From Escherichia coli (lineage in GTDB: Bacteria > Pseudomonadota > Gammaproteobacteria > Enterobacterales > Enterobacteriaceae), in the NCBI RefSeq assembly GCF_013315695.1, contig NZ_CP054353.1: DNA of 64,000 nt, one strand, 5' to 3'. Shown here in pieces: positions 10,813 through 33,636 of this stretch. The position numbers were made by a program, and so were the translations under genes. Every line of letters begins with the position of its first letter. Within the stretch, counting starts at the first letter, position 1. The notes beneath the pieces were generated by a model that was not told where the DNA came from, ran no database searches, and was given only the letters and a program-made list of their open reading frames with translations.

Positions 10813-10814
10813 TG

Positions 10815-12329
10815 TTAATCCTCTCGGGCAAAAAGTGCCTCAATAAAGTCGTCCGCTTTAAACGGACGCAAATCCTCAATACGTTCGCCGACACCAATGT
10901 AGCGGATAGGAATACCAAACTGGTCAGCCACCGAGAAAATTACCCCACCTTTCGCTGTACCGTCCAGTTTCGTCAACGTAATGCCGGTTAAACCAACCGC
11001 TTCGTGGAACAGTTTGGCCTGGCTTACCGCATTCTGCCCGGTGCTGGCGTCAATTGTCAGCATAACTTCATGCGGGGCTTCAACGTCGAGCTTCTTCATC
11101 ACGCGGACGATTTTCTTCAGCTCTTCCATCAGGTGCGATTTGTTCTGCAAACGTCCGGCGGTATCGGCAATTAATACGTCGATGTTACGTGCCTTCGCAG
11201 CCTGAATGGCATCGAAGATAACAGAGGCAGAATCGGCACCAGTATGCTGAGCAATCACCGGAATATTGTTGCGCTGGCCCCAGACCTGAAGCTGTTCAAC
11301 CGCTGCCGCACGGAAGGTATCGCCCGCCGCCAGCATCACCGATTTACCCTGCTGCTCAAACTGACGCGCCAGCTTACCGATAGTGGTGGTTTTACCCACG
11401 CCGTTGACGCCTACCATCAGGATCACAAACGGCGCTTTGCCTTCGACGTTAAGCGGTTCATCGACTTTTGCCAGAATCTCGCCCATCTCTTCTTTCAACA
11501 GGCCGTAGAGCGCCTCAGCATCGCGAAGCTGCTTGCGGGTCGCGCCTTCGGTCAGATTAGTGATGATTTTGCGCGTAGTTTCCACACCCACGTCGGCAAT
11601 GAGCAGTTGTTCTTCCAGCTCTTCAAACAGATCATCGTCGATTTTTTTGCCACGGAACAGGCTGATAAATCCTGAACCGAGGTTTTCTTTAGTCTTCAGA
11701 AGGCTGCGTTTCAGGCGCGCGAAGAAACCTTCTTTGGTTGGTTTTTCCTGCTCCTGGGCAATTTCTTCAACCAACGGCTCTTCTTCTACCGCAGGAACAA
11801 GCTCCACCGCCTCTTCTGCGGCTTCATCAGCCAACGCCTGCGCTTCCAGCTCTTCGTCGGTAATCTCTTCTTTTGCCGCTTCTTCTTCCGCCGCGTCGAC
11901 AATCTCTACCGTTTCTGCTTCTGCCTGCCATTCTTCTGGCGAAATCTCTTCGGCTTTGACTTCTTCCGGCAGCGGTTGCTCTTCACGCTCACTAGCCACA
12001 GGCTCAGGTGTGGCTTCAGATTCAACTACCGGTTCCGGCTCTGCAATAACTTCCGGTTCGCTAACCGCTTCCGGCTGCGCTTTTTCGTTTTCGGCAACCT
12101 GTTCAGTGACTTGAACGACGTCGGCAGCGAAAGTTTCCGCCTCTGCTTCAGTATGTGTCTGAGGCAGCTCTTCTGTAGGCTGTTCAGCGACCTTCGCAGG
12201 CTCTTGCGCCTGAACGGTCTCTTCTACAACCGGTTGATCGTTCTGGACTTCTGTCTCTTTTTCCGGGGTCTGCTCTTTTTGACCAAAGCCCAGCCAGGAA
12301 AAAAAGCCACGTTTTTTTTCTTTCGCCAT
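10815..12329 (-). CDS. ftsY: Signal recognition particle receptor FtsY
   Basis: 504 aa; acidic E/A/P-rich N-terminal domain then NG GTPase domain (GVNGVGKTTT, DTAGR). Confidence 0.94.
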   Translation of the reverse strand: MAKEKKRGFFSWLGFGQKEQTPEKETEVQNDQPVVEETVQAQEPAKVAEQPTEELPQTHTEAEAETFAADVVQVTEQVAENEKAQPEAVSEPEVIAEPEPVVESEATPEPVASEREEQPLPEEVKAEEISPEEWQAEAETVEIVDAAEEEAAKEEITDEELEAQALADEAAEEAVELVPAVEEEPLVEEIAQEQEKPTKEGFFARLKRSLLKTKENLGSGFISLFRGKKIDDDLFEELEEQLLIADVGVETTRKIITNLTEGATRKQLRDAEALYGLLKEEMGEILAKVDEPLNVEGKAPFVILMVGVNGVGKTTTIGKLARQFEQQGKSVMLAAGDTFRAAAVEQLQVWGQRNNIPVIAQHTGADSASVIFDAIQAAKARNIDVLIADTAGRLQNKSHLMEELKKIVRVMKKLDVEAPHEVMLTIDASTGQNAVSQAKLFHEAVGLTGITLTKLDGTAKGGVIFSVADQFGIPIRYIGVGERIEDLRPFKADDFIEALFARED

Positions 12330-12481
12330 CTGCGACTACACTCCTCGCTGTTGCTTCATGGCACAGCGTTAACGACGCTATGTACATAGCAGCTATAAAA
12401 ATGATGAAATAGTCTATCACTTAACTTAATTCACATCACCGCCTGCAAGTATGTGTTAACAGGCGGATTGAGCAAATTGTC

Positions 12482-13078
12482 ATGAAAAAACCGAATCATT
12501 CCGGCAGCGGCCAAATCCGCATTATTGGCGGTCAGTGGCGAGGCCGTAAACTCCCGGTTCCGAATAGCCCTGGTCTGCGCCCCACCACCGATCGCGTACG
12601 TGAAACGCTGTTTAACTGGCTGGCGCCAGTCATTGTTGATGCGCAATGTCTGGATTGTTTCGCCGGCAGCGGCGCACTGGGGCTGGAAGCCTTGTCGCGC
12701 TACGCTGCGGGGGCTACGCTGATTGAGATGGAGCGCACAGTTTCTCAGCAGTTAATCAAAAATCTGGCGACGCTGAAAGCAGGCAATGCACGCGTGGTGA
12801 ACAGTAATGCGATGTCATTCCTGGCGCAAAAAGGTACGCCGCATAATATCGTATTTGTCGATCCGCCATTCCGTCGTGGCTTGTTAGAAGAGACGATTAA
12901 TTTACTGGAAGATAACGGCTGGCTGGCTGACGAAGCCTGGGTTTATGTCGAAAGCGAAGTCGAAAACGGTCTGCCCACCGTTCCGGCAAACTGGTCGTTA
13001 TATCGCGAAAAAGTAGCGGGTCAGGTTGCTTATCGCCTGTATCAACGTGAAACACAAGGAGAAAGTGATGCTGATTAA
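12482..13078 (+). CDS. rsmD: 16S rRNA m2G966 methyltransferase RsmD
   Basis: 198 aa, MKKPNHSGSGQIRIIGGQWRGRKL..., DPPF motif. Confidence 0.93.
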   Translation: MKKPNHSGSGQIRIIGGQWRGRKLPVPNSPGLRPTTDRVRETLFNWLAPVIVDAQCLDCFAGSGALGLEALSRYAAGATLIEMERTVSQQLIKNLATLKAGNARVVNSNAMSFLAQKGTPHNIVFVDPPFRRGLLEETINLLEDNGWLADEAWVYVESEVENGLPTVPANWSLYREKVAGQVAYRLYQRETQGESDAD

Positions 13079-13337
13079 TATTGGACGCTTGTTAATGCTC
13101 TGCGTATGGGGATTTTTAATCCTTAATATTTTTCAGCCCTTCCCACGCCCGCTGAATATTTTCGTTAATGTGGCGCTGATTTTTACCGTGCTGATGCATG
13201 GTATGCAACTGGCGCTATTGCAATCGACCTTACCAAAAGATGGCCCGCAGATGACGACCGCCGAAAAGGTGCGTATTTTCCTTTTCGGCGTGTTTGAACT
13301 GTTAATCTGGCAGAAGAAATTTAAAGTTAAAAAATAG
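13068..13337 (+). CDS. yhhL: Small inner-membrane protein YhhL (DUF1145)
   Basis: ORF 13026..13337; start set at MLINIGRLLML preceded by AAGGAG; overlaps rsmD stop. Confidence 0.8.
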   Translation: MLINIGRLLMLCVWGFLILNIFQPFPRPLNIFVNVALIFTVLMHGMQLALLQSTLPKDGPQMTTAEKVRIFLFGVFELLIWQKKFKVKK

Positions 13338-13339
13338 CG

Positions 13340-13699
13340 TTATTGCTCACCAACAAAGCTGACAAAGCGCGTTCCTTTATAGCTCAGCGTACCTTTCTCC
13401 CCCACCGTCAGGGCGTGGTACTGCTGAGCATCAAGGCGGAAGGTCTGCTCCAGCCCGCCGCTTTGCGGTTTGAAACTTGCCTCATAGCGCATGCTGGTTC
13501 CAGCCGGAGTGACCTCCTGCTGACGCGAACGGCGATCGTTAATCGGTTTTTCCCGCTTGTTGCTCACCACCACCAGCTTTTGCTGGAGCGGAGCCATATC
13601 ATTATCAGCTTTTTCCCGTCGCTGCTGCATAAAGCGAAACGATGCAGCGACAATAATTAAGCCAATGATAACAATAAAGAAAAGAGGTGGTTTACTCAT
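13340..13699 (-). CDS. yhhM: Uncharacterized protein YhhM (DUF2500)
   Basis: 119 aa, N-terminal TM helix, K-12 synteny. Confidence 0.85.
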   Translation of the reverse strand: MSKPPLFFIVIIGLIIVAASFRFMQQRREKADNDMAPLQQKLVVVSNKREKPINDRRSRQQEVTPAGTSMRYEASFKPQSGGLEQTFRLDAQQYHALTVGEKGTLSYKGTRFVSFVGEQ

Positions 13700-13839
13700 C
13701 GTTATCCCTCATCGGAAAATGAGGAAATAAGCATACCCTGCCAGTTATGGTGTTGTCATCCGTCCACCCTCGCCACTAAACTGGAGGCAAGACCGTAAGC
13801 ATTCCGCTTACGAAAAAATAACGAATTCAAGGAACTAAG

Positions 13840-14466
13840 ATGCTTTGGTCGTTTATCGCTGTCTGTCTTTCCGCATGGCTATCTGTGGATGCATCGTATC
13901 GTGGGCCAACCTGGCAACGCTGGGTGTTTAAACCGTTAACCCTTCTTCTCCTGCTGTTGCTGGCCTGGCAAGCGCCGATGTTCGACGCCATTAGCTATCT
14001 GGTGCTGGCGGGGCTGTGTGCCTCACTGCTGGGCGATGCGCTAACCCTGTTGCCACGTCAACGTCTGATGTACGCCATCGGCGCGTTTTTCCTCTCGCAC
14101 CTGCTGTACACCATCTATTTCGCCAGTCAGATGACGCTCTCCTTCTTCTGGCCTCTGCCGTTGGTGCTGTTGGTTCTGGGCGCGCTGTTACTGGCGATTA
14201 TCTGGACGCGTCTGGAAGAGTATCGTTGGCCTATCTGCACGTTTATCGGCATGACGCTGGTGATGGTGTGGCTGGCAGGTGAACTGTGGTTCTTCCGTCC
14301 GACCGCTCCGGCACTCTCTGCGTTTGTCGGCGCTTCGTTGCTGTTTATCAGTAACTTTGTCTGGCTGGGTAGTCACTATCGCCGACGCTTCCGTGCGGAC
14401 AACGCGATTGCTGCGGCCTGCTACTTTGCTGGTCACTTCCTCATCGTCCGCTCGCTGTATCTCTGA
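13840..14466 (+). CDS. yhhN: Inner membrane protein YhhN (YhhN family)
   Basis: 208 aa polytopic membrane protein, K-12 synteny. Confidence 0.88.
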
Positions 14467-14472
14467 TAAAAC

Positions 14473-14504
14473 TTGACTCTGGAGTCGACTCCAGAGTGTA
14501 TCCT
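14473..14504 (+). promoter_or_regulatory. zntA promoter with ZntR (MerR-family) operator
   Basis: -35 TTGACT (14473..14478), 20-bp spacer containing perfect palindrome ACTCTGGAGTCGACTCCAGAGT (14476..14497), -10-like TATCCT (14499..14504); elongated spacer typical of MerR-type promoters. Confidence 0.85.
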
Positions 14505-14539
14505 TCGGTTAATGAGAAAAAACTTAACCGGAGGATGCC

Positions 14540-16738
14540 ATGTCGACTCCTGACAATCACGGCAAGAAAGCCCCTCAATTTGCTGCGTTCAAACCGCTAA
14601 CCACGGTACAGAACGCCAACGACTGTTGCTGCGACGGCGCATGTTCCAGCACGCCAACGCTCTCTGAAAACGTCTCCGGCACCCGCTATAGCTGGAAAGT
14701 CAGCGGCATGGACTGCGCCGCCTGTGCGCGCAAGGTAGAAAATGCCGTGCGCCAGCTTGCAGGCGTGAATCAGGTGCAGGTGTTGTTCGCCACCGAAAAA
14801 TTGGTAGTCGATGCCGACAATGACATCCGTGCCCAGGTTGAATCTGCGGTGCAAAAAGCGGGCTATTCCCTGCGCGATGAACAGACCACCGACGAACCAC
14901 AAGCATCACGCCTGAAAGAGAATCTGCCGCTGATTACGCTAATCGTGATGATGGCAATCAGCTGGGGTCTGGAGCAGTTCAATCATCCGTTCGGGCAACT
15001 GGCGTTTATCGCGACCACGCTGGTTGGGCTGTACCCGATTGCTCGTCAGGCATTACGGCTGATCAAATCTGGCAGCTACTTCGCCATTGAAACCTTAATG
15101 AGCATAGCCGCTATTGGGGCGCTGTTTATTGGCGCAACGGCTGAAGCTGCGATGGTGTTGCTGCTGTTTTTGATTGGTGAACGACTGGAAGGCTGGGCCG
15201 CCAGCCGCGCGCGTCAGGGCGTTAGCGCGTTAATGGCGCTGAAACCAGAAACCGCCACGCGCCTGCGTAACGGTGAGCGTGAAGAGGTGGCGATTAACAG
15301 CCTGCGACCTGGCGATGTGATTGAAGTCGCCGCAGGTGGGCGTTTGCCTGCCGACGGTAAACTGCTCTCACCGTTTGCCAGTTTTGATGAAAGCGCCCTG
15401 ACCGGAGAATCCATTCCTGTGGAGCGCGCGACGGGCGATAAAGTTCCTGCAGGCGCCACCAGCGTAGACCGTCTGGTAACGCTGGAAGTGCTGTCAGAAC
15501 CGGGTGCCAGCGCCATTGACCGGATTCTGAAACTGATCGAAGAAGCCGAAGAGCGTCGCGCCCCCATTGAGCGGTTTATCGACCGTTTCAGCCGTATCTA
15601 CACGCCAGCGATTATGGCCGTCGCCCTGCTGGTAACGCTGGTGCCGCCGCTGCTGTTTGCCGCCAGCTGGCAGGAGTGGATTTATAAAGGGCTGACGCTG
15701 CTGCTGATTGGTTGCCCGTGTGCGTTAGTTATCTCCACGCCCGCGGCGATTACCTCCGGGCTGGCGGCAGCAGCGCGTCGTGGGGCGTTGATTAAAGGCG
15801 GCGCGGCGCTGGAGCAGCTGGGTCGTGTTACCCAGGTGGCGTTTGATAAAACCGGTACGCTGACCGTCGGTAAACCGCGCGTTACCGCGATTCATCCGGC
15901 AACGGGTATTAGTGAATCTGAACTGCTGACACTGGCGGCGGCGGTCGAGCAAGGCGCGACGCATCCACTGGCACAAGCCATAGTGCGCGAAGCACAGGTT
16001 GCTGAACTCGCCATTCCCACCGCCCAATCACAGCGGGCGCTGGTCGGGTCTGGCATTGAAGCGCAGGTTAACGGTGAGCGCGTGTTGATATGCGCTGCCG
16101 GAAAACATCCTGCTGATGCATTTGCTGGTTTGATTAATGAACTGGAAAGCGCCGGGCAAACGGTAGTGCTGGTAGTACGTAATGATGACGTGCTGGGTGT
16201 CATTGCGTTGCAGGATACCCTGCGCGCCGATGCTGCAACTGCTATCAGTGAACTGAACGCGCTGGGCGTCAAAGGGGTGATCCTCACCGGCGATAATCCA
16301 CGCGCCGCGGCGGCAATTGCCGGGGAGCTGGGGCTGGAATTTAAAGCGGGCCTATTGCCGGAAGATAAAGTCAAAGCGGTGACCGAGCTGAATCAACATG
16401 CGCCGCTGGCGATGGTCGGTGATGGTATTAACGACGCGCCAGCGATGAAAGCCGCCACCATTGGGATTGCAATGGGCAGTGGCACAGACGTGGCGCTGGA
16501 AACCGCCGATGCAGCATTAACCCATAACCACCTGCGCGGCCTGGTGCAGATGATTGAACTGGCACGCGCCACTCACGCCAATATCCGCCAGAACATCACC
16601 ATTGCGCTGGGGCTGAAAGGCGTTTTCCTCGTCACCACACTGTTAGGAATGACCGGGCTATGGCTGGCGGTGCTGGCAGATACGGGTGCGACGGTGCTGG
16701 TGACAGCGAATGCGTTAAGATTGTTGCGCAGGAGATAA
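14540..16738 (+). CDS. zntA: Zn(II)/Cd(II)/Pb(II)-translocating P-type ATPase ZntA
   Basis: 732 aa; N-terminal metal-binding GMDCAACARKVE, CPC motif, DKTGTLT phosphorylation motif, GDGINDAP. Confidence 0.96.
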   Translation: MSTPDNHGKKAPQFAAFKPLTTVQNANDCCCDGACSSTPTLSENVSGTRYSWKVSGMDCAACARKVENAVRQLAGVNQVQVLFATEKLVVDADNDIRAQVESAVQKAGYSLRDEQTTDEPQASRLKENLPLITLIVMMAISWGLEQFNHPFGQLAFIATTLVGLYPIARQALRLIKSGSYFAIETLMSIAAIGALFIGATAEAAMVLLLFLIGERLEGWAASRARQGVSALMALKPETATRLRNGEREEVAINSLRPGDVIEVAAGGRLPADGKLLSPFASFDESALTGESIPVERATGDKVPAGATSVDRLVTLEVLSEPGASAIDRILKLIEEAEERRAPIERFIDRFSRIYTPAIMAVALLVTLVPPLLFAASWQEWIYKGLTLLLIGCPCALVISTPAAITSGLAAAARRGALIKGGAALEQLGRVTQVAFDKTGTLTVGKPRVTAIHPATGISESELLTLAAAVEQGATHPLAQAIVREAQVAELAIPTAQSQRALVGSGIEAQVNGERVLICAAGKHPADAFAGLINELESAGQTVVLVVRNDDVLGVIALQDTLRADAATAISELNALGVKGVILTGDNPRAAAAIAGELGLEFKAGLLPEDKVKAVTELNQHAPLAMVGDGINDAPAMKAATIGIAMGSGTDVALETADAALTHNHLRGLVQMIELARATHANIRQNITIALGLKGVFLVTTLLGMTGLWLAVLADTGATVLVTANALRLLRRR

Positions 16739-16744
16739 GGCAAA

Positions 16745-16795
16745 CCGATCGCAACATTGAGCGCGATCGGTCCCCTCGCTCCTCTGGGGAGAGGG
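16745..16795. terminator. Hairpin cluster between convergent zntA and tusA
   Basis: ccgatcgc...gcgatcgg (16745..16770) and cctct-gggg-agagg (16781..16794). Confidence 0.4.
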
Positions 16796-16839
16796 TTAGG
16801 GTGAGGGGAAAAGGCGGCATCGAAGCCAATCTTTCCCCA

Positions 16840-17085
16840 TCAACCGCCTTTGCGAATCAAATAACGATAAGGCAGTCCATCCGTCTCTTTCGCAACCAGT
16901 TCGTGTTCCATAAAGGTACAAAACCCAGGAATATCGCGTGTCGTCGCCGGATCGTCAGCAATAATCAGCAACGTTTCACCTGGCTGCATATTGCGCACTG
17001 TTTTGCGCACCATCATTACTGGTTCCGGGCAGCGCAGGCCAAGTGCGTCGAGTGTGTGGTCAGGGCTGGAAAAGAGATCGGTCAT
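16840..17085 (-). CDS. tusA: Sulfur carrier protein TusA
   Basis: 81 aa, [28 protein letters not shown] (CPxP motif). Confidence 0.95.
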
Positions 17086-17263
17086 TTTCTTCTCATCACA
17101 TAAAAAAACGGCGCTAGTTTACGCCCTGTGAGTCCGTAAGCAAACCAGGTTAACGATTGCGTGAAAATTAACCATTGCATTGTCAACGTAAAGCAGTATC
17201 ATGCGGCGGCTCGAAAAAAGGGTCAGCACGTTATTATGTTAAGGTAACAGACGTGTCGTACGT

Positions 17264-17299
17264 ATTGGGTTCCCTCACCCCAATGGTTAATCAAAAAGG
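17264..17299 (+). promoter_or_regulatory. Candidate preQ1-I-like riboswitch/leader element in yhhQ 5' UTR
   Basis: Hairpin ATTGGG-UUCCCUCA-CCCAAT followed by A-rich tail GGTTAATCAAAAAGG that includes the SD, ending 6 nt before the yhhQ ATG; architecture resembles the preQ1-I aptamer as I remember it. Confidence 0.35.
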
Positions 17300-17305
17300 T
17301 ACAAT

Positions 17306-17971
17306 ATGAACGTTTTCTCGCAAACGCAACGCTATAAGGCGTTGTTCTGGTTATCGTTATTTCATCTTCTGGTGATCACCTCCAGTAACTATCTGGTTCA
17401 GCTTCCCGTCTCCATTTTTGGTTTCCATACCACCTGGGGCGCGTTTAGCTTTCCGTTTATTTTCCTTGCTACCGACCTGACTGTGCGTATTTTTGGCGCA
17501 CCGCTGGCTCGTCGCATCATCTTTGCGGTAATGATCCCCGCATTGCTGATCTCCTACGTCATCTCATCGCTGTTTTATATGGGGTCATGGCAAGGATTCG
17601 GCGCGCTCGCCCACTTCAACCTGTTTGTCGCCCGTATCGCCACCGCCAGTTTCATGGCCTACGCGCTGGGGCAGATCCTCGACGTGCACGTTTTTAACCG
17701 CCTGCGTCAGAGTCGTCGCTGGTGGCTGGCACCGACGGCTTCCACCCTGTTTGGTAACGTCAGCGACACGCTGGCCTTCTTCTTCATTGCCTTCTGGCGC
17801 AGCCCGGATGCCTTTATGGCTGAACACTGGATGGAAATCGCGCTGGTCGATTACTGTTTCAAAGTGTTAATCAGTATCGTTTTCTTCCTGCCAATGTATG
17901 GCGTATTACTCAATATGCTGTTGAAAAGACTGGCAGATAAATCCGGAATCAACGCTTTGCAGGCGAGTTAA
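17306..17971 (+). CDS. yhhQ: Queuosine precursor (preQ0/preQ1) transporter YhhQ (COG1738)
   Basis: 221 aa polytopic membrane protein, MNVFSQTQRYKALFWLSLFHLLVITSSNYLVQ... Confidence 0.92.
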   Translation: MNVFSQTQRYKALFWLSLFHLLVITSSNYLVQLPVSIFGFHTTWGAFSFPFIFLATDLTVRIFGAPLARRIIFAVMIPALLISYVISSLFYMGSWQGFGALAHFNLFVARIATASFMAYALGQILDVHVFNRLRQSRRWWLAPTASTLFGNVSDTLAFFFIAFWRSPDAFMAEHWMEIALVDYCFKVLISIVFFLPMYGVLLNMLLKRLADKSGINALQAS

Positions 17972-18043
17972 AGGTTCGTTATCAGAGTTGTGATAAGATG
18001 GATGAATGAGCCGTTATGGCCGTTTATCGAAAGGAAGAAGTCA

Positions 18044-18601
18044 ATGCGCAATCTGGTTAAATATGTCGGAATTGGCCTGCTGGTTATGGGGCTTGCGGCC
18101 TGTGATGATAAAGACACTAACGCTACGGCGCAGGGTTCGGTCGCGGAAAGTAACGCTACCGGGAATCCCGTCAACCTGCTTGATGGCAAGTTAAGTTTCT
18201 CGCTGCCAGCGGATATGACCGACCAGAGCGGTAAGCTGGGAACGCAGGCTAATAACATGCATGTCTGGTCCGACGCCACCGGGCAAAAAGCAGTCATCGT
18301 CATCATGGGCGATGATCCGAAAGAAGATCTGGCGGTGCTGGCGAAGCGCCTGGAAGATCAGCAACGTAGCCGCGATCCGCAGCTGCAAGTGGTAACCAAT
18401 AAAGCCATTGAGCTGAAAGGTCACAAAATGCAGCAGTTAGACAGCATTATCTCCGCGAAAGGCCAGACGGCGTACTCTTCCGTTATTCTGGGTAACGTGG
18501 GTAATCAACTGCTGACCATGCAAATTACGCTGCCCGCTGACGATCAGCAAAAAGCACAGACCACCGCAGAAAACATCATTAATACGCTGGTTATTCAGTA
18601 A
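18044..18601 (+). CDS. dcrB: Periplasmic lipoprotein DcrB
   Basis: ORF 17990..18601; start at [20 protein letters not shown] (lipobox), SD AAGGAAG upstream. Confidence 0.9.
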
Positions 18602-18604
18602 GTT

Positions 18605-19822
18605 TTAAGATGATGAGATGGCCTCAGGTACTTCCACCGGAGGCCGTTTTTTTAATCGCCACGTCAGTAATAACGCGATTGCGACCAGTCCCGCCGCCGC
18701 CAGATAAATCACCGGGACGCCCGCCCAACTCATCACCAGCCCAGCCAGTGGTCCGGTCACGCCAAGCGATAAATCCATAAATACGGTGTAAGTTGCCAGC
18801 GCCGCCCCCTGATTTTGCTGCGGAACCGCTTTTACCGCCACTACGCCCAATGCCGGGAACACCAGCGAAAACCCCGCCCCCGCGAGTAAGACGCCGATTT
18901 TCGCCATCCACGGCATAGTCGCCACGCCAACCAGTAGCAGGCCGATTATCTCAACGCTAAAGCAAATCATCGCCACGTTTAAGCCGCCGATACGGTTAAT
19001 GCCGTTAGGAAATAACAAACGCGTACCGACAAACGCACAGCTAAACAGCGTCAGCGCGAAAGCCGCACCGTCCCAACCTTTAGCGTCATAAAACAGCGTG
19101 ATAAAGGTGGCGATAACGCCAAATCCGGCGGAAGCCAGTGCCAGCGCCATACCGTACAGCCAGACGCGCCCAAGCACCGCACGAAACGGCAGCGGTTTGC
19201 CTTTACTGGCTTTTACCGTCGGACGCGGGATCGCCAACAAAATGGCCACCAGCGCCACGCCCATAATGATTAACGCTAACGCCTGCAATCCGCCCCAGTG
19301 ATAAAACACGACACCTAACGGCGCACCCATCGCCATCGCCCCGTAAGTGACAATACCGTTCCACGAAATCACCCGCCCGATATGTAGCGAACCAACCACG
19401 CCAACACCCCACAGGGTCGATCCCGTTCCGGCAAAACTTTGCCCAATCCCAAGGATTACGCGCCCCAGGCACAGTAATAACAGGCTGATGACGGGCAGAC
19501 TGGCGGTTAATCCCGCCGTCAGATATCCCAGACCGCTCAAAAAGCAGCCGCATAAACCGAAGACGACAATCTTTTTGGGTCCCAGCAAATCGGCGTAACG
19601 TCCGGCATGAGGACGGCTCAGCAAGGTGGCGAAATATTGCAGGCTGATAACCAACCCTGCCCAGAAGGCACTAAATCCCATCACATCATGGACATAGCCC
19701 GGTAATACAGCGAGCGGCAACCCGATGGTGAGGTAGCTGGCGAAGTTAAACATGACAATGGAGACAATGCGCAAATTCAGGCGCAATCCGTTTAGCGCGG
19801 GTTCGGCTACGGGTTCGGGCAT
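18605..19822 (-). CDS. yhhS: MFS transporter YhhS
   Basis: ORF 18605..19864; start trimmed to MPEPVAEPALNGLRLNL (405 aa); 12-TM MFS-like. Confidence 0.9.
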   Translation of the reverse strand: MPEPVAEPALNGLRLNLRIVSIVMFNFASYLTIGLPLAVLPGYVHDVMGFSAFWAGLVISLQYFATLLSRPHAGRYADLLGPKKIVVFGLCGCFLSGLGYLTAGLTASLPVISLLLLCLGRVILGIGQSFAGTGSTLWGVGVVGSLHIGRVISWNGIVTYGAMAMGAPLGVVFYHWGGLQALALIIMGVALVAILLAIPRPTVKASKGKPLPFRAVLGRVWLYGMALALASAGFGVIATFITLFYDAKGWDGAAFALTLFSCAFVGTRLLFPNGINRIGGLNVAMICFSVEIIGLLLVGVATMPWMAKIGVLLAGAGFSLVFPALGVVAVKAVPQQNQGAALATYTVFMDLSLGVTGPLAGLVMSWAGVPVIYLAAAGLVAIALLLTWRLKKRPPVEVPEAISSS

Positions 19823-24274: not shown

Positions 24275-27078
<2,804 letters not shown>

Positions 27079-27227
27079 CACCTACCCACGCGCCGTTATT
27101 TCCTGACGGCGCAGTAAATTCCTGCCAAATATCGACTCACGTCACATTTTTTTGATCACGATTTGGTCCCTCAAAATGTGAGACGCTTCGATCCTCTTTT
27201 TCTCCCGTTCACCTACTATACGCTTGA

Positions 27228-27255
27228 AGTTGTCCATGATTGTCCATAGACAACT
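27228..27255 (+). promoter_or_regulatory. Candidate operator upstream of island GntR regulator
   Basis: Inverted repeat AGTTGTC-N14-GACAACT with embedded direct repeat TTGTCCAT x2, about 20 bp upstream of regulator start. Confidence 0.35.
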
Positions 27256-27276
27256 GTAAATGTTCAGGTGCGCGCC

Positions 27277-28023
27277 ATGAAATCATTAAGTAAGTCGTCA
27301 CAAATACCGCTCTATCAACAAGTGGTGGAGTGGATAAGAGAAAGTATTTATACCGGGGATCTGGTGGAAGACGATCGCATTCCTTCGGAATACCAGATTA
27401 TGGATATGCTGGAAGTGAGTCGGGGAACCGTTAAAAAAGCGGTCGCCCAACTGGTAAAAGAAGGCGTGTTGATTCAGGTCCAGGGGAAGGGAACTTTTGT
27501 CAAAAAAGAGAACGTGGCATATCCGTTAGGTGAAGGATTATTGTCATTCGCGGAATCGCTGGAAAGCCAGAAAATACATTTTACCACTGAAGTTATTACG
27601 TCACGGATTGAACCGGCTAATCGTTATGTGGCAGAGAAATTAAGAATAACGCCCGGTCAGGATATTCTTTACCTTGAGCGTTTACGTTCAATTGGTGATG
27701 AAAAAGCGATGCTGATAGAGAACCGTATCAATATTGAGCTATGCCCCGGCATCGTGGAAATCGATTTTAATCAACATAATTTATTTCCAACAATAGAAAG
27801 TTTGTCGCAAAGAAAAATTCGTTACTCGGAAAGTCGCTATGCCGCGCGATTAATTGGTAATGAACGCGGTCATTTTTTAGATATCAGTGAAGATGCACCC
27901 GTTTTGCATCTGGAGCAGTTAGTCTTTTTCTCCCGAGAGTTACCCGTTGAGTTTGGCAACGTCTGGTTAAAAGGAAATAAATATTATCTGGGCACCGTGC
28001 TGCAACGGCGGGAAGTGAGTTAA
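27277..28023 (+). CDS. GntR/HutC-family transcriptional regulator (winged HTH + UTRA effector domain)
   Basis: ORF 27268..28023 (GTG); ATG at 27277 with AGGTG SD. HTH region IPSEYQIMDMLEVSRGTVKKAVAQLVKEGVL. Confidence 0.8.
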   Translation: MKSLSKSSQIPLYQQVVEWIRESIYTGDLVEDDRIPSEYQIMDMLEVSRGTVKKAVAQLVKEGVLIQVQGKGTFVKKENVAYPLGEGLLSFAESLESQKIHFTTEVITSRIEPANRYVAEKLRITPGQDILYLERLRSIGDEKAMLIENRINIELCPGIVEIDFNQHNLFPTIESLSQRKIRYSESRYAARLIGNERGHFLDISEDAPVLHLEQLVFFSRELPVEFGNVWLKGNKYYLGTVLQRREVS

Positions 28024-28047
28024 ATACACTTTTTTATGAGGAATAAA

Positions 28048-28521
28048 ATGCAAGGCATACAGTTTCAGGAAAATTATATTCAACGACTTCCGGCAGGGTT
28101 AAGCGTTGAACAGATCATCCGTCAGTTAGCGCAACCGTTGGTTGCTGCTGAGCTGGTGGTCCCTGATTTTGCCAATCACGTACTGAAACGTGAGGCGACG
28201 TACCCAACGGGGCTGCCTACCGAACCACCGTGCGTCGCCATTCCGCACACGGACCATAAACATGTCCGGCACAATGCAATTGCCGTCGGTATTTTGCCAG
28301 AGCCGGTAGAGTTTGCCGATATGGGCGGCGACCCTGATCCCGTACCTGTCAGGGTGATTTTTTTGCTCGCCTTAAGTGAAAGTAATAAACAATTAAATGC
28401 CCTGGGCTGGATTATGGAGATGATTCAGGATACGCCCTTTATGCGCGCCCTGCTTACGATGGAAACAACAGAAATACACACAGTAATCTTAAACAAAATG
28501 AATGAACGAGGTGAAATATGA
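28048..28521 (+). CDS. PTS EIIA component, galactitol (GatA-like) family
   Basis: ORF 28036..28521; ATG 28048 after GAGGA. Phospho-His region CVAIPHTDHKHV resembles GatA AIAIPHCEA. Confidence 0.8.
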   Translation: MQGIQFQENYIQRLPAGLSVEQIIRQLAQPLVAAELVVPDFANHVLKREATYPTGLPTEPPCVAIPHTDHKHVRHNAIAVGILPEPVEFADMGGDPDPVPVRVIFLLALSESNKQLNALGWIMEMIQDTPFMRALLTMETTEIHTVILNKMNERGEI

Positions 28522-28799
28522 GTCAAACCATTTTATTTGTCTGCGCCACAGGTATTGCCACATCCACGGCGGTAACAGAAAAAGTCATGGAGTATTGCAA
28601 AGAGCACGGCCTTAACGTCAATTATTCCCAAACCAACGTTGCCTCTTTACCCGGTAATACCGACGGCGTAGCGCTGGTTGTTTCAACGACTAAAGTGCCT
28701 TATGAACTCGACGTCCCGGTAGTTAACGGCTTGCCGATTATTACCGGTATTGGCGAAGAGAAAGTACTGGCGCAAATTGTTTCGATTCTTAAAAAGTAA
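28518..28799 (+). CDS. PTS EIIB component, galactitol (GatB-like) family
   Basis: 93 aa, ILFVCATGIATST (phospho-Cys loop); 4-bp overlap with EIIA gene. Confidence 0.8.
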   Translation: MSQTILFVCATGIATSTAVTEKVMEYCKEHGLNVNYSQTNVASLPGNTDGVALVVSTTKVPYELDVPVVNGLPIITGIGEEKVLAQIVSILKK

Positions 28800-28872
28800 T
28801 TAATAATTAATTCCAACCCACTCCATCAGGCGCTAACGCGAGGTGCGCTCTCGCCTGAAAAAGAGGTTTATT

Positions 28873-30231
28873 ATGAACGATATCGCGCATACCCTCTATA
28901 ATATTGTGCAATATATATTGGGATTTGGCCCCACGGTAATGTTGCCGTTGGTGTTATTTATTCTTGCTCTCTGTTTTAAAGTAAAACCCGCTAAAGCCTT
29001 ACGCTCGTCATTAACAGTCGGCATTGGTTTTGTCGGTATTTATGCCATTTTCGATATTCTTACCAGCAATGTCGGGCCAGCGGCCCAGGCGATGGTTGAA
29101 CGCACCGGAATTAATTTACCGGTGGTGGATTTAGGCTGGCCGCCGCTTTCCGCTATTACATGGGGTTCGCCAATTGCCCCGTTTGTTATTCCCCTGACCA
29201 TTCTGATTAATGTCGCAATGCTGGCGTTAAATAAAACCCGCACCGTTGATGTAGATATGTGGAACTACTGGCATTTTGCCCTTGCCGGTACGCTGGTTTA
29301 TTACAGCACCGGCAGCCTATTCTTTGGTTTGCTGGCGGCCGCGATTGCCGCAGTGGTGGTGCTAAAACTCGCCGACTGGTCTGCGCCACTGGTACAAAAA
29401 TACTTTGGCCTGGAAGGGATCTCATTGCCGACGCTCTCTTCGGTGGTGTTCTTCCCGGTCGGTCTGCTGGTCGACAAAATCATCGACCATATCCCTGGCC
29501 TCAATCGTATTCATATCGACCCGGAAACCGTACAGAAAAAGTTTGGCATCTTCGGCGAACCGATGATGGTTGGCACTATTCTGGGCATTCTGCTCGGCGT
29601 AATTGCCGGATACGATTTCAAAAAAGTCTTGCTGCTTGGCATCAGCATTGGCGGTGTGATGTTCATCCTGCCACGCATGGTTCGCATCCTGATGGAAGGT
29701 TTATTACCGCTGTCTGAAGCCATTAAAAAGTATCTCAATGCCAAATACCCTGACCGTGACGATCTCTATATAGGACTGGATATCGCCGTTGCCGTAGGTA
29801 ACCCGGCGATTATCTCCACCGCCCTGCTGCTGACGCCAATCTCGGTCTTTATCGCGTTTGTCCTCCCAGGTAATGAAGTCCTGCCGCTTGGCGACCTTGC
29901 CAACCTGGCGGTAATGGCGTCGATGATTGCTTTAGCCAGCCGTGGCAATATTTTCCGCACCGTTCTGGCGGCGATCCCGGTGATTATTGCCGACCTGTGG
30001 ATTGCCACTAAAATCGCGCCGTTTATTACCGGAATGGCGAAAGACGTTAACTTCAAATTTGCCGAAGGCTCCAGCGGCCAGGTTTCCAGTTTCCTTGATG
30101 GCGGTAACCCGTTCCGCTTCTGGCTGCTGGAAATCTTCAACGGCAATCTCATCGCCATTGGTCTGGTGCCGGTTATCGCCCTGATACTGTATGGCATTTT
30201 CCGAATGACGCGGAGCACGGTTTATGCCTGA
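28873..30231 (+). CDS. PTS EIIC permease, galactitol (GatC-like) family
   Basis: ORF 28843..30231; ATG 28873 after AAGAGG. Polytopic; strong resemblance to GatC (GPTVMLP..., GEPMMVGTILG, FGDLANL). Confidence 0.82.
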   Translation: MNDIAHTLYNIVQYILGFGPTVMLPLVLFILALCFKVKPAKALRSSLTVGIGFVGIYAIFDILTSNVGPAAQAMVERTGINLPVVDLGWPPLSAITWGSPIAPFVIPLTILINVAMLALNKTRTVDVDMWNYWHFALAGTLVYYSTGSLFFGLLAAAIAAVVVLKLADWSAPLVQKYFGLEGISLPTLSSVVFFPVGLLVDKIIDHIPGLNRIHIDPETVQKKFGIFGEPMMVGTILGILLGVIAGYDFKKVLLLGISIGGVMFILPRMVRILMEGLLPLSEAIKKYLNAKYPDRDDLYIGLDIAVAVGNPAIISTALLLTPISVFIAFVLPGNEVLPLGDLANLAVMASMIALASRGNIFRTVLAAIPVIIADLWIATKIAPFITGMAKDVNFKFAEGSSGQVSSFLDGGNPFRFWLLEIFNGNLIAIGLVPVIALILYGIFRMTRSTVYA

Positions 30232-31732
30232 TAACAGCGCAGCTATCGTTATCGATATTGGCACCACCAATTGCAAAGTCACCTGCTTTTCCTGCCTGGA
30301 TGCAACGACGTTGGGCGCGCATAAATTCGTGACGGCAAAACAGATCTCCCCACAGGGCGATGTCGATTTCGATATCGACGTCCTCTGGCAGGAGGTCCGC
30401 CAGGCAATAGCGCAACTGAGCGCCGCTTCGCCGCTGCCGGTCAGGCGGATAAGCATTGCCAGTTTTGGCGAGTCAGGGGTGTTTCTTGACGAGCATGGCG
30501 AGATCCTGACGCCAATGCTGGCATGGTATGACCGCCGCGGTGAAGAGTACCTGGCAACGCTTAGTGAGGCAGACAGTGCGGCGCTTTATGACATCTGCGG
30601 GCTACCGCTGCACAGCAATTACTCTGCCTTCAAAATGCGTTGGTTGCTGGAGCATTATCCACTGCGTAATCGCCGCGGCCTGCGTTGGCTACATGCGCCG
30701 GAAGTACTGCTCTGGCGGCTGACTGGCGAACAGCGTACGGATATCACCTTAGCCAGCCGTACGCTGTGTCTGGACGTGCGTAAAGGCGAATGGTCAGCGA
30801 AAGCGGCGGCGTTGTTACACGTTCCCTGTTCAGCATTTGCGCCATTGGTGCAGCCAGGCGAGCACGCCGGATGGGTCAGCGAGTCGCTCTGCAAAACGCT
30901 TGGGTTCTTGCAACCGGTCAGCGTGACGCTGGCCGGGCATGACCATATGGTGGGTGCGCGGGCGTTGCAGATGACGCCGGGCGATATCCTTAACTCGACG
31001 GGCACCACAGAAGGCATTCTGCAACTGGATACACAACCGACGCTGGATGAACAGGCCAAACGTGACAAGCTGGCAAACGGCTGTTATTCGCTTGCAAACC
31101 AGTTCACCCTGTTTGCGTCGCTGCCGGTGGGCGGTTTCGCTCTGGAGTGGCTGCGCAACACGTTCCGGCTAACCGATGAGGAGATCGCCGCATCACTTAC
31201 TCGCGGACATGCGGATTACCTGGCGGGGAACTGGTCGCTCGATGACATTCCCGTTTTTATTCCGCATCTTCGCGGTTCGGGTTCGCCCTATAAAAATCGC
31301 CATACCCGAGGATTATTTTATGGGCTTGGCGATACGTTAAATATCGATATGTTAATTGCCAGCGTCTCACTGGGATTAACCATGGAATTTGCCAACTGCT
31401 TCGCCTGTTTTAATGTGCCCGGCACCAGCGCGTTAAAAGTGATAGGTCCGGCAACCCATAATCCCCTTTGGCTGCAATTAAAGGCGGATATTTTACAGCG
31501 TCCGGTTGAAGCAATTGCATTTAACGAGGCGGTTTCTGTCGGAGCATTATTAACCGCCGCACCGGATATTCCACCGCCGCAAGTCACCATAGCCCAACGT
31601 TTGTTACCGAATCGGGCGAGATACCATCAATTACAGCGTTATCAGCACAAATGGAAAAGCTGGTATCAGTTGAAATTACAGCAAGAAGGCGTGATGCCAT
31701 TACATCATCGGGAGGAGCACTATGTTGAGTAA
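30224..31732 (+). CDS. FGGY-family carbohydrate kinase
   Basis: 502 aa; N-terminal AAIVIDIGTTNCKV ATPase motif; 8-bp overlap with EIIC gene. Confidence 0.75.
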   Translation: MPDNSAAIVIDIGTTNCKVTCFSCLDATTLGAHKFVTAKQISPQGDVDFDIDVLWQEVRQAIAQLSAASPLPVRRISIASFGESGVFLDEHGEILTPMLAWYDRRGEEYLATLSEADSAALYDICGLPLHSNYSAFKMRWLLEHYPLRNRRGLRWLHAPEVLLWRLTGEQRTDITLASRTLCLDVRKGEWSAKAAALLHVPCSAFAPLVQPGEHAGWVSESLCKTLGFLQPVSVTLAGHDHMVGARALQMTPGDILNSTGTTEGILQLDTQPTLDEQAKRDKLANGCYSLANQFTLFASLPVGGFALEWLRNTFRLTDEEIAASLTRGHADYLAGNWSLDDIPVFIPHLRGSGSPYKNRHTRGLFYGLGDTLNIDMLIASVSLGLTMEFANCFACFNVPGTSALKVIGPATHNPLWLQLKADILQRPVEAIAFNEAVSVGALLTAAPDIPPPQVTIAQRLLPNRARYHQLQRYQHKWKSWYQLKLQQEGVMPLHHREEHYVE

Positions 31733-31991
31733 AACCGTGGAGGTCAGAAACAGTACTGGCCTGCATGCACGTCCGGCGGCCTGTCTGGCGAAAGCCGCCA
31801 AAAAATATAGCTGTAAAGTGACGCTGCATTATGAAGGTAATGATATTAATGCCACCAGCATGATGAATATTATGCGCGCCGGAATAAAAGGCGGAAAAAC
31901 GGTGGAAATACGCTGCGAAGGTGATGATGAAAACGAGGCAATACAAACTCTCACTACCTTATTTCGCGACCGCTTCGGTGAAGCTGAATAA
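31722..31991 (+). CDS. HPr-like phosphocarrier protein (island-encoded paralogue)
   Basis: 89 aa; active-site GLHARPAA (His-15 equivalent); overlaps kinase gene. Confidence 0.8.
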   Translation: MLSKTVEVRNSTGLHARPAACLAKAAKKYSCKVTLHYEGNDINATSMMNIMRAGIKGGKTVEIRCEGDDENEAIQTLTTLFRDRFGEAE

Positions 31992-32022
31992 TTAACTGAT
32001 ATTAAAAGATGAGGTTTTCAAT

Positions 32023-32883
32023 ATGCCATTAGTTAATGGACGGATACTGCTCGACCGCATTCAGGAAAAACGGGTATTAGCGGGCGCATTTAATACCACC
32101 AATCTGGAGACAACGATTTCAATTTTAAACGCCATTGAGCGTTCAGGATTACCCAACTTCATTCAGATTGCGCCCACCAATGCACAACTGTCGGGATACG
32201 ATTACATTTATGAAATCGTGAAACGTCACGCTGATAAAATGGATGTTCCGGTCAGTCTTCATCTTGATCACGGGAAAACTCAGGAGGATGTTAAACAGGC
32301 GGTGCGCGCGGGCTTTACCTCGGTCATGATTGACGGTGCCGCATTCTCTTTTGAAGAGAATATCGCTTTCACCCAGGAAGCTGTCGATTTCTGTAAATCC
32401 TATGGCGTACCGGTTGAAGCGGAGCTGGGGGCGATTCTCGGCAAAGAAGACGATCACGTCAGCGAAGCCGATTGCAAAACGGAACCGGAAAAGGTGAAGA
32501 CCTTTGTCGAACGCACCGGTTGCGACATGCTGGCAGTTTCTATTGGTAACGTTCATGGCCTGGACGATATACCGCGGATCGATATCCCCCTGCTGAAGCG
32601 CATTGCCGAAGTCAGCCCGGTGCCGCTGGTTATTCACGGCGGCTCCGGTATCGCCCCGGAGATATTACGCAGTTTCGTTAATTATCGCGTCGCTAAAGTG
32701 AATATCGCCAGCGATCTGCGCAAAGCGTTTATCACCGCAGTCGGCAAAGCCTATGTGAATAATCACAACGAGGCGAATCTGGCACGAGTGATGGCATCAG
32801 CAAAAAACGCCGTCGAGGAAGATGTGTATAGCAAAATCCTGATGATGAATGAGGGGCATCGGTTGATTAGAAAGGCATCTTAA
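32023..32883 (+). CDS. Class II ketose-bisphosphate aldolase (GatY/KbaY/FbaA family)
   Basis: 286 aa; LHLDHG, VEAELG, HGGSG motifs of class II FBA family. Confidence 0.82.
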   Translation: MPLVNGRILLDRIQEKRVLAGAFNTTNLETTISILNAIERSGLPNFIQIAPTNAQLSGYDYIYEIVKRHADKMDVPVSLHLDHGKTQEDVKQAVRAGFTSVMIDGAAFSFEENIAFTQEAVDFCKSYGVPVEAELGAILGKEDDHVSEADCKTEPEKVKTFVERTGCDMLAVSIGNVHGLDDIPRIDIPLLKRIAEVSPVPLVIHGGSGIAPEILRSFVNYRVAKVNIASDLRKAFITAVGKAYVNNHNEANLARVMASAKNAVEEDVYSKILMMNEGHRLIRKAS

Positions 32884-32895
32884 GAGCCACAAAAA

Positions 32896-32930
32896 TATAG
32901 CGGCGCAACAGAAATTGTTGGGCCGCTATA
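32896..32930. terminator. Bidirectional terminator hairpin between aldolase and HicB-like gene
   Basis: tatagcggcgcaac / gttgggccgctata stem; T-run follows on minus strand (TATATTTTTG). Confidence 0.55.
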
Positions 32931-32932
32931 AG

Positions 32933-33292
32933 TTATAAATGATTCAAACGCTCATTTAGCGTTTCAATAATATAAGTATTTACAGAGACTTGTTGCTGCG
33001 CAGCCGCATTATTAAGGCGTTCACTCAGCGATTCTGGATAGCGTAATGTAAAGGTCTTAATCTTTTCTGTACGCGCATACGGCTCAATACCCGCAGCTTT
33101 ACAATCCTCAAGATACTCTCGCAGGGAAAGCTCCCCTTCTTTTTGCAGCCCCTGAATGCTGTCAGAGACAAAATCACAATAACCTGACAAGCCCAGGAAT
33201 TTGCCACGAAATGCATTCAGTTCTGGCACGTAAGTGATAACAGCAGGTTGCCCGGCAATCTCCATAGAGTTTGGCGTCTTCAGTTTGATCAT
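32933..33292 (-). CDS. HicB-family antitoxin-like protein (C-terminal ribbon-helix-helix)
   Basis: 119 aa; C-terminal SERLNNAAAQQQVSVNTYIIETLNERL looks like an RHH DNA-binding motif; 4-bp overlap with upstream small gene. Confidence 0.6.
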   Translation of the reverse strand: MIKLKTPNSMEIAGQPAVITYVPELNAFRGKFLGLSGYCDFVSDSIQGLQKEGELSLREYLEDCKAAGIEPYARTEKIKTFTLRYPESLSERLNNAAAQQQVSVNTYIIETLNERLNHL

Positions 33293-33564
33293 GGTTTTAC
33301 CCCTATACTTAGTAACCAGTCACGCACGCTTTCTACAGCGCCTTTATCGGTATCTGGCGACGGATGAGGCCGATGGAAACACGCAACGCTCATATTTAGT
33401 ATGAACTTACAACGCGAACCTCTTCCTTCCTTAATTTCTCCGCCTAATGCTTTAACCAGTGACTCTATATCAGACCACTTAATCCCTTGAGGAACAGGAG
33501 ATTTAAATATTTGATCCAATGTATTTTTTTGTTTCTTCCGTAAAGCCTGTACCAGGGTTCTCAT
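33289..33564 (-). CDS. HicA-family toxin-like protein (putative mRNA interferase)
   Basis: 91 aa; GSRCKFIL...HRPHP...DTDKGAVESVRDWL resembles the HicA pattern; upstream partner of the HicB-like gene. Confidence 0.55.
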   Translation of the reverse strand: MRTLVQALRKKQKNTLDQIFKSPVPQGIKWSDIESLVKALGGEIKEGRGSRCKFILNMSVACFHRPHPSPDTDKGAVESVRDWLLSIGVKP

Positions 33565-33636
33565 GGCATGTCCTTATGACTTCACTTTATGACATCAATA
33601 GTATGACATCACAATATGAAGTCAAGTTTCCCTTCC

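Follow-up and report, generated by a model that had tools for sequence, protein, structure and literature searches.

Why should an operon whose transporter is expected to phosphorylate its sugar on entry also encode a kinase of the FGGY family, whose members act on free sugars? The question is raised by a seven-gene island lying between nikR and yhhJ in the Escherichia coli contig NZ_CP054353.1 (RefSeq assembly GCF_013315695.1), within the 64-kb stretch of DNA analyzed here (64,000 nucleotides, hereafter the window). The island encodes a regulator, a galactitol-type permease of the phosphotransferase system (PTS), an FGGY kinase, a paralog of the phosphocarrier HPr and a class II aldolase. The original prediction, a note made from the sequence alone, had left two options for the kinase, namely a second phosphorylation of the PTS product or service to a non-PTS entry route; comparative evidence favored the former. 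Our preferred reading, to which we give about an even chance of being correct, is that the FGGY kinase adds a second phosphate to the PTS product, giving a ketose bisphosphate that the aldolase then cleaves.

The seven co-directional plus-strand genes are located between nikR (end at 27078) and the convergent hicB and, according to the list of open reading frames (ORFs), span positions 27277-32883 (Table 1), with gene starts set by the RefSeq annotation of DNA 96.8-100% identical to the window. The predicted gene content was matched, family by family, by NCBIfam and RefSeq (GntR/HutC regulator, EIIA, EIIB, EIIC, FGGY kinase, HPr and aldolase), and the predicted overlaps were exact on both ORF and RefSeq coordinates, with 4 bp shared by EIIA and EIIB, 8 bp by EIIC and the kinase and 11 bp by the kinase and HPr; the remaining intergenic gaps measure 24, 73 and 31 bp. 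No dehydrogenase gene was found among the island ORFs, again as had been claimed. Family calls were made by NCBIfam profile scans scored against curated cut-offs. No island protein reached the cut-off of any functionally named ortholog group, and the two NCBIfam models whose cut-off was passed were the generic HPr model and NF005943, a 'class II aldolase' model carrying no substrate name. Comparison of the window strain with O157:H7 gave ratios of nonsynonymous to synonymous substitution (dN/dS) of 0.01-0.21 across the seven genes, with dS of 0.09-0.24, so that all of them are under purifying selection. The island is a real, intact and self-contained seven-gene catabolic operon, and the kinase, in line with the original prediction, is an FGGY protein and no pseudogene, with 502 intact amino acids and a dN/dS of 0.05.

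The island carries a complete and intact PTS phosphorelay set, with its own HPr bearing His15, an EIIA histidine, an EIIB cysteine and a Gat-type EIIC. EIIA scored 56.5 bits against the GatA model NF007236 (cut-off 139) and its translation contains the motif AIPHTDH with the phosphorylatable His67, while EIIB scored 60.2 bits against the GatB model NF007643 (cut-off 95), with the phosphorylatable Cys9 in FVCATGIATS. EIIC matched the EIIC-GAT model TIGR00827 with 476 bits (cut-off 542) over residues 15-422, covering the whole profile, and its orthologs belong to PF03611. These matches assign the three proteins to the PTS galactitol (Gat) family, TC 4.A.5. Orthology to the galactitol-specific GatABC was rejected, as all three fall under the GatA, GatB and GatC cut-offs and neither GatD nor GatZ is encoded in the island. 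The HPr paralog scored 103.5 bits against TIGR01003 (cut-off 47.9), with His15 in GLHARPA and Ser46 present, and is on these features a phosphocarrier of the HPr family.

The aldolase scored 556 bits against NF005943 (cut-off 364) and 220.7 bits against TIGR00167 (cut-off 215.6), but only 239 bits against the GatY model (cut-off 383) and 181.8 bits against the KbaY model (cut-off 542), with 32-36% identity to GatY and KbaY. Its zinc-binding and catalytic residues H80, D82, H83, E132, E134, H178, H205 and N227 are invariant in 78 aldolases of the module described below and are conserved with AgaY, GatY and KbaY, which places the protein in the class II metal-dependent ketose-bisphosphate aldolase family PF01116. 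A tagatose-1,6-bisphosphate aldolase of the GatY/KbaY kind was rejected on the scores under cut-off and on the lack of a GatZ/KbaZ partner encoded alongside; no GatZ/KbaZ homolog was found in the island, nor beside the module in six relatives with Pfam-annotated neighbors. In the alignment, R233 is likewise invariant in the 78 module aldolases, its place being taken by Lys in GatY and KbaY and by Cys in YdjI. The island aldolase scored 150 bits against YdjI and 168 bits against AgaY. For its 120 best homologs, the source names shown point to taxa already known to have the module, and no case of a PfkB kinase replacing the FGGY kinase was gained. PF01116 aldolases are known for 3S ketose phosphates, and a 3S preference would fit a D-hexulose of the fructose/tagatose type, or a heptulose, as the substrate.

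The domains FGGY_N and FGGY_C (PF00370 and PF02782) were assigned to the 98%-identical cluster of the kinase, and its 90%-identity cluster comprises 4169 sequences, nearly all full length, with few truncated members. The profile hidden Markov model (HMM) assignment of its subfamily that had been proposed was run and ended without a named relative. The best NCBIfam models were XylB (143.5 bits, cut-off 380), GlpK (127.5 bits, cut-off 590) and FucK (115.9 bits, cut-off 471), and none of the characterized FGGY subfamilies tried (XylB, GlpK, FucK, RhaB, AraB, GntK, LsrK and pentulose kinase) had its equivalog cut-off reached. D11, G13 and T15 of the ATP-site motif DxGTT are invariant within the subfamily, and D11 and the catalytic D240 stay invariant when E. 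coli FucK, RhaB, XylB, GlpK and LyxK are added. Membership in the FGGY family is well grounded in these domains and residues. The motif AGHDHMVGA resembles AGHDTQ of FucK and ASHDTA of RhaB, proteins to which the kinase shows 18-22% whole-length identity. One E. coli protein of 313 amino acids (P0068) combines FGGY_C (PF02782) with EIIC-GAT (PF03611) and matches part of the kinase at 98% identity; a frameshift or an error of assembly at the 8-bp overlap of EIIC and kinase genes is its probable origin.

Relatives of the kinase at 61-80% identity were found in Citrobacter, Salmonella, Klebsiella oxytoca, Cedecea, Rahnella, Sodalis and others, and at 33-40% identity in Enterococcus, Listeria, Lactobacillales, Bacillales, Negativicutes, Coriobacteriia and Actinobacteria. 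Pfam-annotated gene neighborhoods and an HMM scan of 80 loci from different species, with statistics on the 76 loci longer than 9 kb, distinguished five architectures. Enteric loci of a first type begin GntR-EIIA-EIIB-EIIC-FGGY and continue with HPr and aldolase in one order or the other, the aldolase standing directly after GntR in two loci; those of Enterococcus, Lactobacillales and Negativicutes read regulator-aldolase-EIIA-EIIB-EIIC-FGGY and have no HPr. Enteric loci of a second type (Erwinia, Pantoea, Raoultella, Serratia) are ordered EIIA-EIIB-EIIC-FGGY-Zn dehydrogenase-GntR-aldolase-HPr, and the Bacillales version is EIIABC-Zn dehydrogenase-aldolase-FGGY-Zn dehydrogenase, with galactitol-1-phosphate 5-dehydrogenase as the best named match of its second dehydrogenase. 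The actinobacterial version has no PTS and consists of a major facilitator superfamily (MFS) carrier, aldolase, FGGY kinase and a second FGGY kinase, with a divergent GntR gene, a Zn dehydrogenase and a transporter. A PF01116 aldolase adjoins this FGGY subfamily in 74 of the 76 loci. The Gat EIIC is present in 62 and a XylB-like second FGGY kinase in 13, all of them actinobacterial, and the two never occur together; the one locus with neither lies at a contig edge. In 40 of the 62 PTS loci, across phyla, the EIIC stop overlaps the FGGY start or is at most 10 nt away from it. HPr was found beside the module in Enterobacterales only (32/76 loci), and Zn-dependent dehydrogenases are added in 22 PTS-bearing relatives, again with galactitol-1-phosphate 5-dehydrogenase as best named match. 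The actinobacterial partner kinase carries GGGDNAA, as xylulokinase does, and scored 330 bits on the XylB model.

The identity of E. coli proteins to their Enterococcus counterparts is 76% for EIIC and 69% for the aldolase, which points to transfer of the module between phyla, with EIIA at 38% and the kinase at 37%; between E. coli and K. oxytoca the values are 90% for EIIC, 89% for the aldolase, 63% for the kinase, 53% for EIIA and 42% for HPr. The fast-evolving set of kinase, EIIA and HPr might be interaction partners. The island had been described as an altered gat operon, a view that does not hold. It is a version of an old, mobile and self-contained module found across phyla, rather than a gat operon that was rewired in a single E. 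coli lineage, and sister versions do carry the Zn-dependent polyol(-phosphate) dehydrogenases that it lacks. In Enterococcus raffinosus, E. malodoratus and E. avium (loci L035-L037, positions about 10800-19100), a second PF01116 aldolase follows the module; a PRD/EIIA-type regulator and a Zn dehydrogenase are among the next genes in E. malodoratus (L036), and L035 and L036 hold a further, more distant FGGY kinase, so that a second related sugar locus seems to have been appended there.

The Salmonella module (L003) is most likely STM3779-85. Its location in the uhp neighborhood, together with published descriptions of the cluster, fits this equation. STM3784 was named in a 2011 paper as 'a putative sugar phosphotransferase' activated by ArcA, and a 2024 Salmonella paper placed STM3780-85, expressed together in a permissive chicken caecal community, under 'Unknown sugars', while listing the separate genes STM3253-5 for tagatose. 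Since Salmonella has these genes for tagatose, that sugar is no obvious substrate for STM3780-85. Our literature search on the module or its substrate found no characterization, 'Unknown sugars' being the sole functional label, which agrees with the original prediction that this is no known operon of defined substrate.

Each of the five architectures combines two phosphorylating activities with one aldolase of the type that forms dihydroxyacetone phosphate (DHAP), the variable component being the PTS or the XylB-like kinase. Free sugar can be acted on by either of these, so that the FGGY kinase, as the constant component, must come second, and two orders are then possible, with the kinase acting on the sugar phosphate or on the free product of cleavage. 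The former is favored because the constant kinase shares its His-Asp motif (AGHDHM) with the ketose 1-kinases FucK and RhaB and its actinobacterial partner has the xylulokinase motif. The polyol-phosphate dehydrogenases GatD, MtlD and SrlD yield ketoses with the phosphate distal to the keto group, so that the ketose left by a GatD-like oxidation would need phosphorylation at C1 before a DHAP-forming aldolase could cleave it. A bisphosphate substrate is also favored by the pattern at R233, a basic residue in the module aldolases and in GatY/KbaY that is replaced by Cys in the monophosphate-cleaving YdjI, and by the exact and established precedent of fruBKA, in which an HPr-like protein and a ketose PTS are joined by a kinase acting on the PTS product. 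Further support comes from the close linkage of the EIIC and FGGY genes in 40 of 62 PTS loci, from the low dN/dS of all seven genes and from the reported joint expression of STM3780-85, most likely part of the Salmonella module.

In the pathway so proposed, enzyme I (EI) would phosphorylate the HPr paralog and the phosphoryl group would pass via EIIA and EIIB to the sugar during import by EIIC, being placed on a terminal hydroxyl distant from the keto group. With ATP, the FGGY kinase would then phosphorylate C1, beside the keto group, to give a ketose 1,omega-bisphosphate, which the class II aldolase would split into DHAP and an aldose phosphate (glyceraldehyde 3-phosphate in the case of a hexulose), both products feeding straight into glycolysis. 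The island substrate would be a ketose, and the dehydrogenase-bearing versions of other taxa would use the matching polyol. The GntR/HutC protein would act as a repressor that binds TGTCCATAGACA and is freed by a phosphorylated intermediate. We also propose, more tentatively and at somewhat less than even confidence, that the kinase defines an FGGY subfamily with a sugar-phosphate substrate, a ketose omega-phosphate 1-kinase whose activity would be new to the family, and that the module, carried from phylum to phylum by gene transfer, is a pathway for some rare ketose or the corresponding polyol (e.g., a heptulose or an uncommon hexulose), a nutrient open to use in the gut by E. coli O157:H7, by phylogroup B2 strains and by Salmonella.

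Several observations weigh against a second phosphorylation of the PTS product. We know of no FGGY kinase that accepts a phosphorylated sugar, which leaves the proposed activity without precedent. In whole-protein scores the kinase is no nearer to FucK than to XylB or GlpK, and the motif argument concerns a few residues. The mutual exclusion of PTS and second kinase may reflect a single evolutionary event, as 13 of the 13 PTS-less loci are actinobacterial, and the XylB-like enzyme there could simply be the xylulokinase of a parallel branch for pentitols, with a transporter of the RbtT/DalT type encoded nearby. Monophosphate-cleaving members of PF01116 exist, such as YdjI, annotated as an octuluronate-1-phosphate aldolase, and IolJ. 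R233 would presumably bind a distal phosphate, a role taken from class II aldolase structures, and the fructose-bisphosphate aldolase of Staphylococcus aureus has Gln at this position.

A rival order has the kinase act on the product of cleavage. The PTS would then place its phosphate on C1 of the ketose, as the established fructose PTS does, the aldolase would release DHAP and a free aldose (e.g., D-glyceraldehyde or erythrose), and the FGGY kinase would phosphorylate this fragment in the manner of triokinase in the liver fructose 1-phosphate pathway. Such a route also fits the census of two phosphorylations and one aldolase, gives the FGGY kinase a substrate without phosphate, like those of all its characterized relatives known to us, and draws on the monophosphate aldolases of PF01116, with the scores of 150 bits for YdjI and 168 bits for AgaY. 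It would however require that, in Actinobacteria, the XylB-like enzyme (GGGDNAA) is the C1 kinase and the FucK/RhaB-like enzyme (HD) the triokinase, the reverse of what the motifs suggest. Module versions whose dehydrogenases oxidize as GatD, MtlD or SrlD do would deliver a distal-phosphate ketose that a DHAP-forming aldolase cannot cleave, and the invariant basic R233 of the module aldolases is Cys in YdjI. We consider this order of events unlikely.

That the kinase instead serves a PTS-independent entry or salvage route, the second option of the original prediction, seems to us improbable; it would then make the monophosphate that the PTS also makes, using free intracellular sugar that arises by hydrolysis, by dephosphorylation or by facilitated diffusion. 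The known preference of FGGY kinases for free sugars suits this role, and salvage kinases such as Mak and glucokinase do accompany some PTS pathways. They are, however, normally unlinked and dispensable. The kinase of the module, by contrast, is the partner most constantly found with the aldolase (74/76 loci) and is translationally coupled to EIIC in 40/62 PTS loci; the actinobacterial versions, moreover, lack a PTS and yet have two kinases. No step encoded in the island would make the aldolase substrate from a PTS monophosphate unless the phosphate were on C1 from the start, and the kinase would then be redundant. It is very improbable that what E. coli carries is a cryptic or decaying leftover that no longer has a function there, even though no phenotype has been assigned to it, its site is a variable hotspot and promoter and terminator consensus matches occur across it at the frequency of shuffled sequence. 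Seven intact ORFs, the low dN/dS between E. coli lineages, a kinase cluster of 4169 near-identical full-length sequences with few truncations, a conserved operator-like palindrome and the reported expression of the Salmonella cluster taken as orthologous all speak against decay. A tetritol/erythrulose pathway with the FGGY kinase LerK and the aldolase-like isomerase LerI had also been entertained, with LerI taken for a PF01116 protein, and was dropped, as the literature describes LerI and TpiA as homologs.

The regulator gave full-length matches to HutC-type GntR models, every one under its equivalog cut-off, and is named 'GntR family transcriptional regulator' in RefSeq, with a dN/dS of 0.08. 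It combines a GntR winged helix with a C-terminal UTRA effector domain, as in the GntR/HutC subfamily (PF00392 and PF07702 in the Salmonella ortholog), and a conserved palindrome lies upstream of its gene. This 12-nt palindrome, TGTCCATAGACA, occurs once in the window. Related loci totaling 1.41 Mb contain 20 matches to the degenerate form TGTC[CT]AT[AG]GACA, of which 19 fall at the annotated start of the GntR gene of the module or a short way upstream of it, for a chance expectation of about 0.7, and 17 matches have an identical offset across genera whose kinases are only 61-80% identical. We regard the palindrome as a candidate operator of the GntR/HutC regulator, which fits an autoregulated operon. 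Beyond the last gene, a hairpin of -22.9 kcal/mol (z-score -5.6; 0 of 200 shuffles as stable) has no T-run and contains the homology breakpoint of the right edge of the island; it is possibly a bidirectional terminator.

Table 1. Positions in the window of the island genes, the candidate regulatory elements and the adjoining toxin-antitoxin genes.
Feature	Position	Strand	Remarks
Candidate operator, 12-nt palindrome TGTCCATAGACA	27241-27252	none	Upstream of the GntR gene
Extended form of the palindrome, TTGTCCATAGACAA	27240-27253		
Half-site repeat TTGTCCAT	27230-27237		
GntR/HutC-family transcriptional regulator	27277-28023	+	First gene of the operon; ORF opens at GTG 27268
PTS EIIA (PTS_EIIA_2 type)	28048-28521	+	
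PTS EIIB (PTS_IIB)	28518-28799	+	
PTS EIIC, galactitol (Gat) family	28873-30231	+	Membrane permease
FGGY-family carbohydrate kinase	30224-31732	+	502 amino acids, full length
HPr paralog (phosphocarrier)	31722-31991	+	
Class II (zinc) ketose-phosphate aldolase, PF01116 family	32023-32883	+	PRK07998 type
Stable hairpin (RNA fold)	32896-32930	none	Between the convergent aldolase and hicB genes
hicB	32933-33292	-	Type II toxin-antitoxin pair with hicA; RefSeq annotation of matching DNA; outside the operon
hicA	33289-33564	-	Type II toxin-antitoxin pair with hicB; RefSeq annotation of matching DNA; outside the operon

Homology with island-free genomes stops at 27076/27077 and returns at 32921/32922, within about 15 bp of the predicted bounds of 27079-32935. 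The prediction that the island replaces rhsB was correct as to the gene order of K-12 (rhsB-yhhH-yrhC'-yhhI between nikR and yhhJ in MG1655) but not as to a simple replacement. The nikR-yhhJ interval, which corresponds to 27077-33636 of the window and was one of eleven rhs positions in E. coli in a 2009 survey, is a variable hotspot with at least four states, namely rhsB-yhhH-yhhI (K-12), hicAB alone, the PTS island with hicAB (the window and O157:H7) and the PTS island alone (Nissle 1917). The survey of synteny proposed for extraintestinal pathogenic and commensal genomes, once run, showed that the island is not specific to extraintestinal pathogens; it is present, always on the chromosome, in 1631 of 5426 complete E. 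coli genomes (about 30%), O157:H7 and the commensal Nissle 1917 included. The hicB/hicA pair accompanies the island in O157:H7, is missing beside it in Nissle and occurs without it in other strains, and is a separate unit of insertion or deletion, whose gain and loss do not depend on the PTS island.

The annotation of strain WP5-S18-ESBL-08 gives hicA as a pseudogene interrupted by an internal stop (L090, 12368-12643), and the Salmonella module is followed, after a gene for a GIY-YIG-domain protein, by a toxin-antitoxin system of a different family (RelE and a helix-turn-helix protein; L003, 12002-12668). The G+C content of the island is uneven, at 0.41-0.48 in the regulator, EIIA and EIIB genes, 0.57-0.59 in most of the kinase gene (30250-31249) and 0.44-0.47 in HPr and the start of the aldolase gene. 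No Rfam family was detected in 26900-33700, and promoter and terminator consensus matches across the region were no more frequent than in shuffled sequence. An identity with the vpe carbohydrate permease locus of uropathogenic E. coli was rejected, as that locus sits with deoK on region of difference 40 (strain NCTC 86) and the island, between nikR and yhhJ, has no deoK in its vicinity.

Were the substrate identified, enteric pathogens and probiotics would be seen to have one more carbon source that defines their niche, and the known chemistry of the FGGY family would be extended if the kinase indeed acts on a phosphorylated sugar. What is new here is this predicted activity of the FGGY subfamily and the nutrient of the module; the design of PTS, second kinase and aldolase is known. 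The wiring, which the original prediction had considered unusual, follows the established logic of fruBKA, and it is the family of the kinase alone that is out of the ordinary.

By sequence, the closest relatives of the island proteins are the Gat PTS and the GatY/KbaY/FBA aldolases, and the closest kinase-aldolase pairings are FucK/FucA, RhaB/RhaD and YdjH/YdjI. The gatYZABCD operon of K-12 shares with the island the Gat-family EIIA, EIIB and EIIC and a PF01116 class II aldolase, which in gat cleaves a ketohexose 1,6-bisphosphate, but it has GatD and GatZ and neither a kinase gene nor an HPr, whereas the island has kinase and HPr and neither GatD nor GatZ. The baseline from which the island had been said to depart, a gat operon of PTS, dehydrogenase, PfkB-type kinase and aldolase, was therefore mistaken, since E. 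coli gatYZABCD contains no kinase gene. MG1655 (2170000-2180000) has gatC marked as a pseudogene and gatR interrupted by IS3E. FucK/FucA and RhaB/RhaD likewise pair an FGGY kinase acting on C1 of a 2-ketose with a metal-dependent DHAP-forming aldolase, and their kinases have the His-Asp catalytic motif in common with that of the island, yet FucA and RhaD belong to another fold family (PF00596), the substrates are free 6-deoxy-ketoses taken up via symporters and the aldolase takes a monophosphate. The ydj cluster of K-12 joins a PF01116 aldolase (YdjI) to a dedicated sugar kinase (YdjH) and has two Zn-dehydrogenases, as in the Bacillales, Erwinia and Pantoea versions of the module, but YdjH is of the PfkB type, MFS carriers stand in the place of a PTS and YdjI cleaves a 1-monophosphate with no basic residue equivalent to R233.

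In the D-tagatose pathway of Klebsiella oxytoca and Bacillus licheniformis, a PTS delivers the ketose phosphate, a dedicated kinase (TagK) converts it to the bisphosphate and a GatY-type aldolase cleaves the product; the kinase is of the PfkB type and the PTS of the Fru type, unlike those of the island. The closest functional analog would be fruBKA of E. coli and Salmonella, in which an operon-encoded HPr-like phosphocarrier and a ketose PTS permease are likewise combined with a kinase that re-phosphorylates the PTS product for a class II aldolase. The two differ in that FruK is a PfkB-family kinase and the island kinase an FGGY protein, the fructose PTS belongs to the Fru and the island PTS to the Gat family, and the fru regulator is Cra/FruR (LacI type) rather than GntR/HutC; the fru operon, moreover, has no aldolase of its own and uses the housekeeping FbaA, whereas the island encodes a dedicated PF01116 aldolase.

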